Shown piece after piece: positions 17,107 through 32,436 of a stretch of 64,000 bases of DNA. The stretch's first letter is position 1. Every line of letters starts with the position of its first letter. The notes under the pieces were generated by a model, which saw nothing but the letters and a program-made list of their open reading frames with translations, did no database searches and was not told the DNA's origin. Origin of the DNA: Candidatus Nanoarchaeia archaeon (GTDB taxonomy: Archaea; Nanobdellota; Nanobdellia; Woesearchaeales; GW2011-AR9); assembly GCA_035289385.1 (NCBI GenBank), contig DATDXI010000012.1, positions 9,871-73,870 of the forward strand, in the 5' to 3' direction. The position numbers and the translations under genes are program-made.

Positions 17107-17668
17107 AACATGTCTTGCTTAAACAAACACCACAATCATTTCCCGCACTATTCCCTTCGTCCAACTTTCTTCCACACGTACATACCCATCCCGCTAGCCG
17201 TGCAGGATTTCCATACACCAATGCAAAATCAGGAACATTCTTTGTAACTACAGACCCTGCTCCGACCATGGCAAATCTTCCAATAATGATGCCAGGAACA
17301 ACGACAGTCCTAGCGCCTAACGACGCACCTTCTTTTATCAGCGTTTTACTTTCTTCCCAATCTGAATCTGTTTTCAAGCTTCCATCGCTATTGATCGCTC
17401 TTGGCCAACGGTCATTGGTAAAGACACAATGCGGCCCGACAAACACACCATCTTCAAGAGTGACGCCATGATAGACAGAAGAATTATTTTGGATCTTACA
17501 ATTTTTTCCTATTACAACGCCTTTGTCAACATAAACATTCTTGCCGATGATGCAATTATCCCCGATGAAAGCTTCTTCCCGAACCTGAGCCTGATGCCAT
17601 ATTTTTACATTCGTTCCAATGGTCGCTGAAGAAGAGACATCTGCAGAAGGATGAAAAAACGTTGTCAT
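17105..17668 (-). CDS. Hexapeptide-repeat N-acetyltransferase (WbpD/WlbB-like)
   Basis: [79 protein letters not shown] overlap with the upstream epimerase stop. Confidence 0.75.
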
Positions 17669-18762
17669 AATGACCTCAACAAGCTAATGATATTATCAGC
17701 AACACCTTTCTCATAAGGATAGGGGATGTTTTTAATCTTTTGCAGTTCTTTATCATCCAGTAAGCGTCTGGCAGCCGACAAGATGGTCTCCGTCGTCGTT
17801 CCCGCAAGAATGTTCTTTCCCGCATCAACTAGGCTGATCCATTCTGTCTCCTGCCGAGGGATCAGGCAAGGGACATTAAAAAAAATCGCCTCTTCTTGAA
17901 TCCCACCGCTATCAGTAACACAAAAGCGGCATTCTTTCAGCAAAGCCAAAAATTGAAGGTATCCCTGAGGCTCAATAAGATGAATCGTTGGCGGCAAGGA
18001 GATACTGAATGTTTCTAGTGCCTTTTTGGTTCGAGGATGGATAGGAAAAAGTACAGGAAGATTCCTAGAAATAGTCTCTAGAGCAGCCAGTATCTCCTGC
18101 AGTTTGTTTTTATCATCTGTTGTTTCAGCCCGATGCAAGGTGACAAGAACATACTGCCCTGAAGAGATATTCTGTGTTTTAAGCATATTCTCGGAAGGGA
18201 TAAGTTTTTCATTCCTCTCCAAGGCATCAAAAACAATGCTGCCAAAAAGGTTGACGCCTTCCGTTATCCCTTCCTGAGATAGATTCTGCAAACTAGCCTT
18301 ATCAGGGGCAATAAGAAAAGAAGAGAGATGATCTACTATCACCCTATTAATCTCCTCAGGCATCTTCCTGTTAAACGAACGGCAGCCTGCTTCCACATGG
18401 AGCACCGAGATATGGAGCTTAGCCGCTGCCAGTGCTCCTGCTAAAGTGCTGTTAGTATCTCCCTGAACAATCACTAATTGAGGCTTTTCCTTCAGAAGCA
18501 CTTCTTCAATATTCTCCAGCATCATCGCTGTCTGCTTGCCAGCAGGATGAGAGCCGATAGTGAGGTTGTAAGACGGTGGTTCCAGCTGCAGCTCATCAAA
18601 GAAGACCTTATCCATCCGATAGTCATAATGCTGCCCCGTATGGATCAGGATATGCTGGAATTCTTTGTCTAGCAGAGGAAGCAATGGTGAGAGTTTGATG
18701 ATTTCTGGACGGGTTCCTAACACTGTAGCGATCTTCAATGGATTTTTTGCTGGATATCCCAT
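17665..18762 (-). CDS. UDP-N-acetylglucosamine 2-epimerase family (WecB/WbpI/NeuC-like)
   Basis: [37 protein letters not shown]. Confidence 0.85.
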
Positions 18763-18784
18763 CTTCTCCTTGCCAGAAAAATAC

Positions 18785-18792
18785 TTTATAAA
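18785..18792 (-). promoter_or_regulatory. TATA box for the leaderless epimerase operon
   Basis: The minus strand reads GTTTATAAAG, centred 26.5 nt upstream of the ATG at 18762. It lies just outside the left direct repeat of the 424-bp element. Confidence 0.5.
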
Positions 18793-18808
18793 CGTGGTGG
18801 AACTAAAG

Positions 18809-19232
18809 ACTCTGTCCTAAATGTGATTAGCATGTTTTATACGAGCATTTCTTTGCTTAAACATTTTCTTGTGGAAGGGGATGCTCCCTACGGGAAAGAG
18901 CCACAGTTTACTGAAAAAATCATAAAAATGCGTGAAACCGTCTCACCTCGCACTAAAGTGCGAGGTTTGAACAGAGACGGTTCAAGAAATAGGACGACGA
19001 TCCTATTTCTGAACAAAAATGAAATCGCAGTTTCATTTTTTGTTTCTAAACTACGCATTTTTAGGATGCAAAGAAATCCGAAAGGATTTCTTGCACAAGA
19101 AATGAACACATTTCTTTGTGCTAAAAAACCAGACCATTCATCCATTGACTAAAGTCAATGGTTTTCTGGTTTTTTTTCATAAGCAAAGCGAGTACATGCT
19201 AATCCGAGTAGAACGAGATTTAGGACAGAGCC
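18809..19232. mobile_element. MITE-like 424-bp hairpin-rich non-coding element with split terminal inverted repeats and 10-bp flanking direct repeats; the alternative reading is a large structured ncRNA
   Basis: Terminal inverted repeats: CTCTGTCCTAAAT (18810-18822) pairs with ATTTAGGACAGAG (19218-19230), GATTAGCATGT (18825-18835) with ACATGCTAATC (19194-19204), and TTTGCTT (18851-18857) with AAGCAAA (19181-19187). The flanking direct repeat GGAACTAAAG occurs at 18799-18808 and 19233-19242. The interior is a chain of at least 8 local hairpins. Confidence 0.4.
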
Positions 19233-19262
19233 GGAACTAAAGTAAATGGACAGAGGACCAAA

Positions 19263-20030
19263 TTACTTTTTTCCAGAAAAATCTCCTTTCAGACGATGCT
19301 TCGCTACTCTCAAGGCAAAGGCAGTATGGCTCTTGATAACTCTCAACAGTTTCATCTTCGACGTGCCAAAGACCCTGACGTTAAGGACAGTGGGATATTC
19401 TTTAACCTGATATCCTTTCATCATCGCAAAAATAAGAAATTCTGCCGTGCTCAAAAAATCATTAGATCTAAACGGAATATTTTTCACAACATCTTTGCGC
19501 TGAGCGCGGAAGAGGGCAGTAAACGTATATATTTTCGATCCCGTCAGCAGACGATCGATAGCGGTAACCGCTTTGCTTAATGCCAAGCGATATTTTGGAA
19601 CATTGTTCACCCCACCCAAAGGATGGTAAGGAGAAGCGGTGACGATGGCCGTTTCTTCATCCATCAGCTTCAGCAGATCAAAGATCCCTTTTGGCTCATA
19701 GGTGCAATCGCTATCCATGGTGACGATGATATCTCCTTGGGCAGCAGCAAATCCTGTACGTAACGCTGCCCCTAAGTTCATGTTCTTCTCATGACGGATG
19801 ATCTGAGCAGGATGCGGAGGAAGATGCTGAGCAGGATGCGGAGCAGAAAACTTTGTTACAAAAATCTCCTGAAGCAGCTGATAGGTATTATCCTTGCTGC
19901 CATCATCAACGAAGATCAACTCCCAATCATAATCTTTACTAAGTTGGTCCAGCACCGGAAACAAGTTGTCGGCAAGATGCCGGAGCCCTTCTTCCTCATT
20001 ATAGCAGGGGATGACGATAGATATCTTCAT
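19263..20030 (-). CDS. GT2 polyprenol/dolichol-phosphate glycosyltransferase (DPM1/ArnC-like)
   Basis: KISIVIPCYNEEEGL, IFVDDGSKDNT, TMDSDCTYEP. The ATG at 20030 lies 26 nt from the TATA box at 20053-20062. The gene contains an in-frame 24-bp tandem duplication (19803-19843, APHPAQHL/PPHPAQII). Confidence 0.8.
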   Translation of the reverse strand: MKISIVIPCYNEEEGLRHLADNLFPVLDQLSKDYDWELIFVDDGSKDNTYQLLQEIFVTKFSAPHPAQHLPPHPAQIIRHEKNMNLGAALRTGFAAAQGDIIVTMDSDCTYEPKGIFDLLKLMDEETAIVTASPYHPLGGVNNVPKYRLALSKAVTAIDRLLTGSKIYTFTALFRAQRKDVVKNIPFRSNDFLSTAEFLIFAMMKGYQVKEYPTVLNVRVFGTSKMKLLRVIKSHTAFALRVAKHRLKGDFSGKK

Positions 20031-20052
20031 CCTCAGCAATCACCGCTGCGGA

Positions 20053-32356: not shown

Positions 32357-32374
32357 CGAGATTTAGGACAGAGC
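32357..32374. repeat. Solo copy of the 18-mer CGAGATTTAGGACAGAGC, identical to the right terminus of the 424-bp element
   Basis: There is an exact 18/18 match to 19214-19231. It lies in the divergent promoter region between 32304 (-) and 32547 (+). Confidence 0.85.
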
Positions 32375-32375
32375 T

Positions 32376-32436
32376 GAGATAATCAGAGAGATAATTAGGG
32401 AGATAATCAGAGAGATGAACAGAAGAAAGATGAACA
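32376..32436. repeat. Short direct repeats GAGATAATCAGAGAG x2 (period 24) and AGATGAACA x2 (period 15)
   Basis: Read directly at 32376-32390 and 32400-32414, and at 32413-32421 and 32428-32436. Confidence 0.85.

Follow-up and report, generated by a model that had tools for sequence, protein, structure and literature searches.

The locus and its parts

The stretch of DNA analyzed here (the window; 64,000 nucleotides) corresponds to C12:9871-73870 of a metagenome-assembled genome (MAG) of a Candidatus Nanoarchaeia archaeon. This source MAG (G000) comprises 1.2 Mb in 84 contigs, which are given C-numbers below, and is 82% complete. Two genes on the minus strand of the window, one for a UDP-N-acetylglucosamine 2-epimerase (17665-18762; Pfam family Epimerase_2) and one for a family-2 glycosyltransferase (GT2; 19263-20039), are separated by an intergenic gap (18763-19262) that hosts a hairpin-rich 425-bp element (18808-19232). 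When the gap was compared with the rest of the genome by BLAST, it split into pieces that recur separately. The 425 bp can be read with good confidence as non-autonomous mobile DNA nested at three levels, in an archaeon of Woesearchaeota type (DPANN), and consist of an outer miniature inverted-repeat transposable element (MITE; family A), an inner hairpin element (family B) and two hairpin-pair modules. Each of these kinds of element has known relatives; the unusual aspects are the position of the shell at a promoter edge and the border-guide code of family B. Similar repeats are found in public genomes, namely in Woesearchaeota/Nanoarchaeia MAGs. Here, G002 denotes a sister species, G011, G021 and G061 are other MAGs, and L-numbers are stretches from other genomes (L344 is from Nanoarchaeia MAG DATDUF01 and L200 from Nanoarchaeia MAG DATDXK01). 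The features of the locus are as follows, with a strand where one was assigned.

18785-18792, minus strand: TATA box TTTATAAA of the epimerase gene, present in the sequence, 22 nt from the ATG at 18762; the open reading frame (ORF) begins 45 nt out from the end of the element
18793-18798: 6-nt spacer (position of the transcription factor B recognition element, BRE) between TATA box and duplication; same spacing in most family copies
18799-18807: left 9-bp target-site duplication GGAACTAAA; other copies differ
18808-18918: left arm of the outer MITE (family A, subfamily A1), with inverted repeat GACTCTGTCCTAAAT, helix 2 (GATTAGCATGT) and a conserved core hairpin
18919-18922: ATCA tetranucleotide at the left inner-element junction, as in the MITE consensus
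18923-18982, plus strand: family B domain 1, with AAAAATGCGTG as the 5' strand of helix P1, and nested hairpin H1 (18934-18982; loop C-TAAA-G)
18983-19044, plus strand: hairpin-pair module 1 (62 bp), inserted in family B; an alignment gap versus the canonical B1b copy
19045-19070, plus strand: family B, with the 3' strand of P1 (ACGCATTTTT), the central "guide" triplet GAT (19065-19067) and the start of P2
19071-19121, plus strand: hairpin-pair module 2 (51 bp), which interrupts family B after ..GGATGC(A)
19122-19182, plus strand: family B domain 2, with hairpin H2 (AAAAAACCAGA...TCTGGTTTTTT, conserved CCATTCATCC, apical C-TAAA-G loop) and terminal ATAA (19179-19182)
19183-19232: right arm of the outer MITE, ending in inverted repeat ATTTAGGACAGAGCC; 87-88% identical to C42:3138-3192 and C3:4506-4563
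19233-19241: right 9-bp target-site duplication GGAACTAAA

An initial annotation of the window had described much of this architecture. The gap size of 500 bp, the chain of interior hairpins and the 66 bp that removal of the element and one repeat copy would leave (500 minus 425 + 9 bp) were all confirmed. Its terminal helices of 13 bp (18810-18822/19218-19230) and 11 bp (18825-18835/19194-19204) are present, but the third is of 9 bp (18851-18859/19180-19188) rather than 7. The reported 10-bp flanking repeat GGAACTAAAG does occur at 18799-18808 and 19233-19242. Given that comparison with the flanks of other copies identifies the left tenth base, a G, as the first base of the inverted repeat, the true duplication is of 9 bp (GGAACTAAA). 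The element itself, reported as 424 bp, is a real feature of 425 bp.

The outer shell at the promoter edge

The outer shell is, with little doubt, a MITE. The outer pieces of the window element (18808-18922 and 19178-19232) adjoin each other in a clean 165-bp copy (C42:3138-3302) that is flanked on both sides by TATTTGGTG. The left arm is 85-88% identical to C42:3199-3300, C65:6944-7056 and C3:4652-4733, and these relationships were also recovered as nhmmer matches. The shell is a non-coding unit of ∼165 bp (163-165 bp in clean units) with inverted repeats GGCTCTGT..., which match at 14/15 nt in the window copy and at 15/15 in the C42 copy. A set of 14 copies, with flanks that are all different, was curated from nhmmer matches in the source MAG; they fall into three subfamilies that have a common core of ∼100 nt and differ in their termini (GGCTCTGTCCTAAAT; GGCTTAGTAGAAAGT / GGCTCTGTAGAAAGT; GTACGTATTTAGTT). 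The 9-mers flanking other copies are TATTTGGTG, GGAGAAAAA, TTGCCCATC, GCTAAAACC, AGACCAGCG and TGACTTTAA, and the 9-bp duplications comprise at least seven different sequences, decayed in older copies. The C3 copy extends to 222 bp, with GGAGAAAAA as its duplication and an unrelated 57-bp hairpin pair at its center. Pairing of helix 2 is kept with at least eight different sequences across the copies, and even against C42 alone the window copy has three positions changed on both arms. MITE copies occur in other genomes too.

The initial annotation had offered a MITE-type insertion as one of two readings and proposed, as checks, a search for further copies with different flanks and target-site duplications and for an empty site in relatives. 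Both were informative. The many copies with varied flanks and varied 9-bp duplications bear out the MITE reading for the outer shell; the 425 bp as a whole is not one MITE, and its interior belongs to a family without terminal inverted repeats. At the syntenic site in G002, the orthologous epimerase and GT2 genes (∼70% nucleotide identity) lie 25 bp apart with no element between them, implying that the element inserted in the source lineage; at this level of identity the comparison is not base-precise. In the same G002 region (L159; G002:C17:15000-17500), no TATA box was found between the epimerase and GT2 genes, and thus the separate epimerase promoter of the window is not common to the sister species.

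The position of the shell relative to the promoter is regular. Moving outward from the element end in the window, the 9-bp duplication is followed by 6 nt, by TTTATAAA and, 22 nt further on, by the epimerase ATG, so that the element end lies 15 nt from the TATA box. Of the 14 own-genome copies, 11 have a TATA-like octamer made up of A/T only that begins 14-16 nt from one end, compared with 4.9% of random genome positions; allowing one non-A/T base, the counts are 13/14 in the own genome and 20/21 overall. ORFs start 38-75 nt outward in 12 of the 14 copies, and one further copy faces a tRNA gene. The same order of 9 bp, 6 nt and TATA box was observed in all seven copies fetched from other genomes, several of which have perfect duplications, and, relative to the conserved core, the TATA box keeps to one side in 11 of 13 own-genome copies. 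The remark in the initial annotation on the closeness of the element to a promoter was apt; the 6-nt distance from the TATA box is the rule of the MITE family. A literature search returned no paper describing insertion fixed 6 nt upstream of archaeal TATA boxes. We infer that the position reflects targeting rather than the survival of neutral insertions. A MITE-A copy at C13:4390-4540 precedes a tRNA gene (GGCCTCGTAGCTTAGCCGGT...) and is placed 15 nt upstream of its TATA box, which extends the promoter-edge rule to tRNA promoters.

Given that the MITE sits just upstream of an intact epimerase core promoter (BRE and TATA box), basal expression of the epimerase operon would be expected to persist. 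The former upstream sequence would have been displaced by 434 bp, and the hairpins with oligo-T on both strands between the two genes could serve as a read-through stop.

An IS5/IS903-like origin for the shell family is supported by a candidate relative in another genome. At L344:598-1498 lies a 901-bp IS5-family element whose perfect inverted repeats, GGCTCTGTAGAAAGTC, are identical to the right end of the source-genome C33 copy and one mismatch from its left end. The ORF within it is matched by DDE_Tnp_1 and by the IS5-family model of NCBIfam. These repeats and this ORF, taken with the 9-bp duplication, point to an IS5/IS903-like origin. According to ISfinder descriptions, IS903 generates a 9-bp target duplication and has termini of the form GGC.... 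Family A resembles this group in its 9-bp duplication, in termini starting GGCT...., in its many non-coding derivatives of ∼165 bp and in having a ∼900-bp candidate partner (L344) that encodes a DDE_Tnp_1 / IS5-family transposase between repeats matching one MITE subfamily. It differs in that insertion occurs a fixed 6 nt upstream of archaeal TATA boxes and in that a structured core is common to subfamilies with unrelated termini. A further difference lies in the partner itself, whose transposase frame continues across the terminal repeat, the element containing no stop codon for it; there is no partner in the source MAG. The L344 element adjoins the 3' end of a tRNA, with no duplication visible. 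Eight loci with the exact A1 terminus were considered as autonomous partners and rejected, all being MITEs, remnants or one chance match.

Family B and the hairpin-pair modules

The inner element (18919-19182) is a single member of family B, an undescribed and widespread family of hairpin elements; it is 260 bp long here and ∼160 bp in its canonical form. It is very probably an independent mobile insertion. The order of parts in the family is (A/G)T(C/G)A; TAAAAATGCGTG; nested H1 with its C-TAAA-G loop; CACGCATTTTT; AG; the central triplet; P2 enclosing H2; and (A/G)TAA. Here, TAAAAATGCGTG and CACGCATTTTT pair to form helix P1, and H2 holds the invariant CCATTCATCC and a second C-TAAA-G loop. 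Domain 1 in the window was assigned by the exact 18-mer ATAAAAATGCGTGAAACC, by alignment to a canonical copy and by covariation, and domain 2 is 85-89% identical to C1:10893-10946 and C30:15115-15168. In an RNAalifold analysis of 12 diverse copies, 24 of the 42 pairs in the family B fold showed compensatory changes.

Uninterrupted MITEs read ..ACATCA/GCAAAGCGAG.., and the window copy reads ..AAATCA-TAAAAATGCG ... TTTTTTCATAA-GCAAAGCGAG... Comparison of the two nested cases with uninterrupted MITEs revealed neither a duplication nor inverted ends for the family B insertion. Across the species-genome collection, the exact 18-mer occurs in more than 117 stretches; these come almost entirely from Woesearchaeota/Nanoarchaeia MAGs, and one MAG has more than 40. 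When copies were counted per genome with this signature at up to 2 mismatches, 21 were obtained in G002, 10 in G021, 7 in G011 and none in most relatives. Such a patchy, bursty distribution is typical of a mobile element. Near-identical copies of the B2 type end at least seven contigs of the source MAG (C1:18470-18581, C5:1-200, C14:1-120, C30:30634-30745, C33:1-120, C44:1-100 and C83:1-113). The B2 repeat is a main cause of assembly breaks in this MAG, and its true copy number is probably higher.

Some minor observations concern family B and other repeats. A copy in L200 has a (TG)n microsatellite expanded in its 3' end (...TTTTTTTTGTGTGTGTGTGCATAA). Three copies of a repeat of at least 120 bp end in a family-B-like two-hairpin unit (C22:6093-6131, C31:49420-49459 and C31:53003-53043) and follow three unrelated genes, among them those for a methyltransferase and a leucyl-tRNA synthetase. 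For three copies of a unit labeled module D, a gene end was considered as the source of the 60 conserved nt that precede them; given that the upstream genes differ, this stretch is part of a longer repeat. A genome-wide flood of repetitive extragenic palindromic (REP)-like hairpins was also rejected: perfect hairpins number 572 compared with 422 in a shuffle, and TAAA, the commonest loop, occurs only ∼24 times, so that the genome is not REP-saturated.

The borders of family B are restricted: almost every copy has one of three tetranucleotides on the left (ATGA, ATCA or GTCA) and one of two on the right (ATAA or GTAA). Among 76 distinct full-length copies, 67 have 3 nt before A-TAAAAATGCG that are complementary to the 3 nt after CGCATTTTTAG (ATG/CAT in 42, ATC/GAT in 24 and ATA/TAT in 1), with GTC/GAC in B2-type copies; in the window, the ATC of the left junction has its complement in the internal GAT (19065-19067). 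Central triplets ending in AT go with a right border of ATAA, and those ending in AC with GTAA. Read on the other strand, the arrangement is TTAT-18 nt-AAAA-hairpin, with TTAC-18 nt-AAAG-hairpin in B2-type copies and ATAC-17 nt-ATAG-hairpin in the L329 copy, which thus carries a compensatory pair of changes relative to the left-end rule.

These features are reminiscent of IS608, which inserts 3' of TTAC with no DNA gained or lost and whose cleavage site, 19 nt 5' of a hairpin foot, is read by the guide AAAG, which is made up of the four bases 5' of the foot (PMC3201880). In their spacing, the TTAT/AAAA, TTAC/AAAG and ATAC/ATAG pairs of family B reproduce the IS608 left end (TTAC/AAAG is 18 nt from the foot, compared with 19 in IS608), and the other border pairs with an internal triplet beside the hairpin foot, as would a right end. 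On this basis, mobilization of family B by an IS200/IS605-type Y1 transposase, in the manner of a palindrome-associated transposable element (PATE), is somewhat favored. Like IS608 and PATEs such as the HqIRS families of Haloquadratum (PMC3119063), family B lacks inverted ends and a duplication, has subterminal hairpins, is too short to encode a protein, has conserved border tetranucleotides that can pair with putative internal guide bases and is abundant even where tnpA is missing or broken. It differs from IS608 and PATEs in that its ends are fused in a compact two-hairpin unit in which one central triplet can pair with both borders, in that the partner of the left border lies 3' of its hairpin, in the lack of a TnpB/omega-RNA association and in its DPANN host; its putative membership is based on sequence logic. 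An origin of family B from TnpB/omega-RNA was itself rejected, given that there was no Cas12f1-like_TNB match above cut-off in 11 genomes.

A single IS200/IS605 TnpA gene was found in the source MAG, at C58:13770-14201 (Y1_Tnp E = 3e-29; NF033573 E = 1e-30, above cut-off). It lies within a ∼690-bp element inserted, 3' of TTTTTAC, in a copy of MITE-A2 (C58:13500-14400). The end hairpins of this element have the same C-TAAA-G loops as family B, and one resembles H1 of B2 (GCCTATCCCC..CTAAAG..GGGGC..CGGC). Among relatives of the element in other genomes and metagenomes, the flanks vary, CTTTAG-loop hairpins occur at both ends, TTTTTAY precedes the insertion and the terminal sequence is TTAC or TTAT. 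The right flank of the C58 MITE repeats 22 nt of its left side, comprising a putative 9-bp duplication and the first 13 nt of the inverted repeat. The coexistence of hairpin repeats with a single-copy Y1 transposase recalls REP sequences and bacterial interspersed mosaic elements with their REP-associated tyrosine transposase (RAYT, TnpA-REP), and the C58 protein gives a weak, sub-threshold match to the model of the latter. By contrast with that system, the C58 gene scores as a true IS200/IS605 transposase, resides in a mobile insertion sequence (IS) with its own ends and is not flanked by family B repeats; TAAA-loop hairpins number only about two dozen in the genome.

The modules at 18983-19044 and 19071-19121 are extra blocks relative to a canonical family B copy, each a hairpin pair with AGAAAT/ATTTCT stems. 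They are probably separate mobile units. About ten modules were identified by nhmmer in the source genome (e.g. C31:33789-33849 and C35:21471-21531), some of them stand-alone and four inside family B or a MITE, including one in a MITE copy on C65 (C65a); a related module occupies the family B site of module 2 in L198. Module borders are resolved only to 2-3 nt. A precedent is SMR-A of Haloquadratum, a short element with its own inverted ends and no duplication that inserts in PATEs; for the same archaeon it is documented that "MGEs target other MGEs" (mobile genetic elements; PMC3119063). In habit, the modules resemble SMR-A of Haloquadratum walsbyi in being short and non-coding, in lacking a target duplication, in residing in mobile elements and in having inverted ends unrelated to any known transposon. 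They differ in length (50-62 bp compared with ∼110 bp), in sequence, in consisting of two adjacent hairpins and in entering the MITE itself as well.

Nesting is not confined to the window. It was also observed in C3, C65a, C58, L327, L329 and L330, and guests are carried by 5 of the 14 own-genome MITE-A copies and by 3 of 7 elsewhere. With ∼28 guests in the genome and MITE-A making up ∼2% of the non-coding DNA, a rough estimate puts guest insertions in MITE-A at an eight-fold excess. A generally unpaired target region in the MITE was considered and rejected, the mean unpaired probability being 0.25 there compared with 0.30 for the whole element; within the target only CATC sits in a small internal loop.

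Alternative explanations and the proposed order of insertion

Folding of a 444-nt stretch gave -167.7 kcal/mol on the plus strand and -162.7 kcal/mol on the minus strand, compared with an average of about -95 kcal/mol for dinucleotide shuffles (z = -11.4 and -11.5, respectively). The stretch is thus ∼70 kcal/mol more stable than its shuffles, far beyond chance. Near-equal energies on the two strands are expected of DNA palindromes, given that an RNA using G-U pairs would favor one strand. The Rfam scan suggested in the initial annotation gave no match near the gathering score: the best match of any covariance model to the locus (E up to 10) reached 24 bits against a 60-bit gathering threshold, and six clean copies (E up to 1) returned only noise, with nothing relevant. 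Chance ORFs of 109 and 85 amino acids in the composite belong to no Pfam family.

The second reading in the initial annotation, a structured RNA of ∼420 nt, is not supported and was not borne out by any of these results. Its "closing helix" is a transposon inverted repeat, which counts against a structured RNA, and the compensatory changes at the locus trace to two repeat families rather than to a single-copy syntenic gene. That the whole 425 bp is one unit, be it a member of one MITE family or one ∼420-nt non-coding RNA gene, would suit the long closing helix, the flanking direct repeat and the very low folding energy. It is nonetheless barely credible, since no second copy of the full arrangement exists in the source genome or 60 relatives, the termini and interior match separate families with their own borders, and clean shell versions of 163-165 bp are the norm. 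A different proposal is that both family B and the MITE core are transcribed and retain their conserved folds because they act as RNAs (promoter-proximal regulatory RNAs, terminators or insulators), the locus then being a structured-RNA locus assembled from repeats. Compensatory changes are present in both families alike, unpaired motifs are invariant (CCATTCATCC in family B, ACGAGCG / CAGCAAAGCGAG in the MITE), and oligo-T follows hairpins on both strands (19168-19175 on the plus strand; T6 on the minus strand), where it could block GT2 read-through into the epimerase promoter. An RNA role is nevertheless quite improbable in view of the lack of an Rfam match and the equally strong folding of either strand. 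In addition, internal T5-T8 runs would terminate archaeal transcription within the element, and the structure is needed anyway for single-strand transposition and transposase binding.

With regard to the enzyme that moves family B, a non-Y1 activity (an unrecognized hairpin-specific recombinase or nuclease, or an enzyme of host, plasmid or virus), to which IS608-like features had merely converged, is a less probable but serious contender. Y1_Tnp is absent from three of the genomes richest in family B, and TnpB from all. The best-covarying partner of the left tetranucleotide merely extends helix P1, unlike in IS608, and the resident IS200-like element has the hairpin style of family B but not its P1/P2 ends. 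Such convergence would, however, have to account for the TTAC/AAAG, TTAT/AAAA and ATAC/ATAG pairs lying 17-18 nt from a hairpin foot, as in the IS608 left end, for the lack of both duplication and inverted repeat, and for the same C-TAAA-G loops on tnpA-bearing elements in at least five genomes. The absence of the enzyme is also less telling than it appears, since MAGs routinely lose IS copies. In Haloquadratum, PATE insertions differ between strains even though the copies of tnpA there are pseudogenes (PMC3119063). A viral enzyme would sit poorly with the viral contigs, none of which carries the signature of family B or of the MITE. For the modules, a local origin, through amplification of palindromes or a template switch while hairpin DNA is replicated, would explain why their borders show only 2-3 nt of microhomology, why no consistent target can be defined and why AGAAAT/ATTTCT is common to the stems of both. 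It is improbable given the ∼10 copies of 50-62 nt with one layout at unrelated loci, including stand-alone intergenic ones, the module in a different MITE copy (C65a) and the related module at the same family B site in L198.

Several points weigh against the nested-mobile-element account and its proposed enzymes. The main weakness is that the mobilizing enzymes are not in the source MAG or not linked to the elements. No DDE_Tnp_1 gene was found in the source MAG, and a scan of 185,579 species genomes yielded no autonomous element that has exactly the A1 terminus. Y1_Tnp is missing from G011, from G021 and from G061, which holds more than 40 family B copies, with only a divergent one in G002, no Cas12f1-like_TNB match to TnpB above cut-off was obtained in the 11 genomes, and no co-occurrence of Y1 transposase with family B copy number was found. 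A scan of metagenomes with the flank pattern for a base-precise empty site gave 0 matches. The spacing to the TATA box could partly reflect selection on where insertions survive. For family B, the covariation states mostly separate only two or three clades, so that common ancestry can pass for coupling; the central triplet that covaries is located 3' of hairpin P1, unlike the left-end guide of IS608; and subfamily B1a does not fit the TTAT/AAAA rule, the border/guide states being few. Finally, ATCA at the left junction may be the MITE target or the cleavage-site end of the inner element itself, leaving the boundary ambiguous by 4 nt. Given that the tetranucleotides ATCA and ATAA are alike, both nested cases fit either parse within one substitution; either ATCA (left) or ATAA (right) may have been the target.

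The following order of events would account for the nest, the enzymes involved and the active strand of family B being inferred. At the first level, an IS5/IS903-like DDE transposase making a 9-bp staggered cut would have inserted the ∼165-bp MITE, with a cut that leaves 6 nt between the duplication and the TATA box downstream. At the second, the ∼160-bp family B element would have landed later in the MITE, at ..ATCA/ATAA.. and with no duplication, most likely by single-strand "peel-and-paste" catalyzed in trans by an IS200/IS605-type Y1 (HUH) transposase. At the third, two hairpin-pair modules of 50-60 bp would have inserted into family B. An apparent mystery RNA thereby becomes a readable record of three successive insertions.

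A more speculative and rather doubtful extension is that two unreported targeting systems meet at the locus. One would be a promoter-reading DDE family that cuts at the BRE/TATA edge by recognizing the promoter sequence or DNA bent by TATA-binding protein and transcription factor B. The other would be a single-strand element whose target is set by a few guide bases, naturally re-programmed between subfamilies (ATG/CAT, ATC/GAT, GTC/GAC; TTAT/AAAA, TTAC/AAAG, ATAC/ATAG). Spread in genomes with no recognizable transposase would then imply either a new enzyme or mobilization in trans by a partner cell or an episome, and hairpin MITEs at promoters would be preferred landing pads for single-strand elements.

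The observed regularities have uses apart from that extension. The strict test (11/14 own-genome and 7/7 other copies) describes a promoter-edge insertion rule in DPANN archaea, and the border pairing offers an IS608-type target code, simple and open to testing, for archaea whose genomes are very small. At a practical level, the repeats break up MAG assemblies and mimic structured RNAs in covariation screens. They also mark active promoters and so may aid the annotation of transcription units in uncultured archaea.

One further trace of family A was observed in a different intergenic region of the window:

32357-32374: solo 18-nt copy of the MITE right terminus, GAGATTTAGGACAGAGC

This solo terminus is probably a remnant. 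It is followed directly by a short tandem array of GAGATAATCAGA-like units (32357-32420 in total), upstream of a KpsS-like gene.

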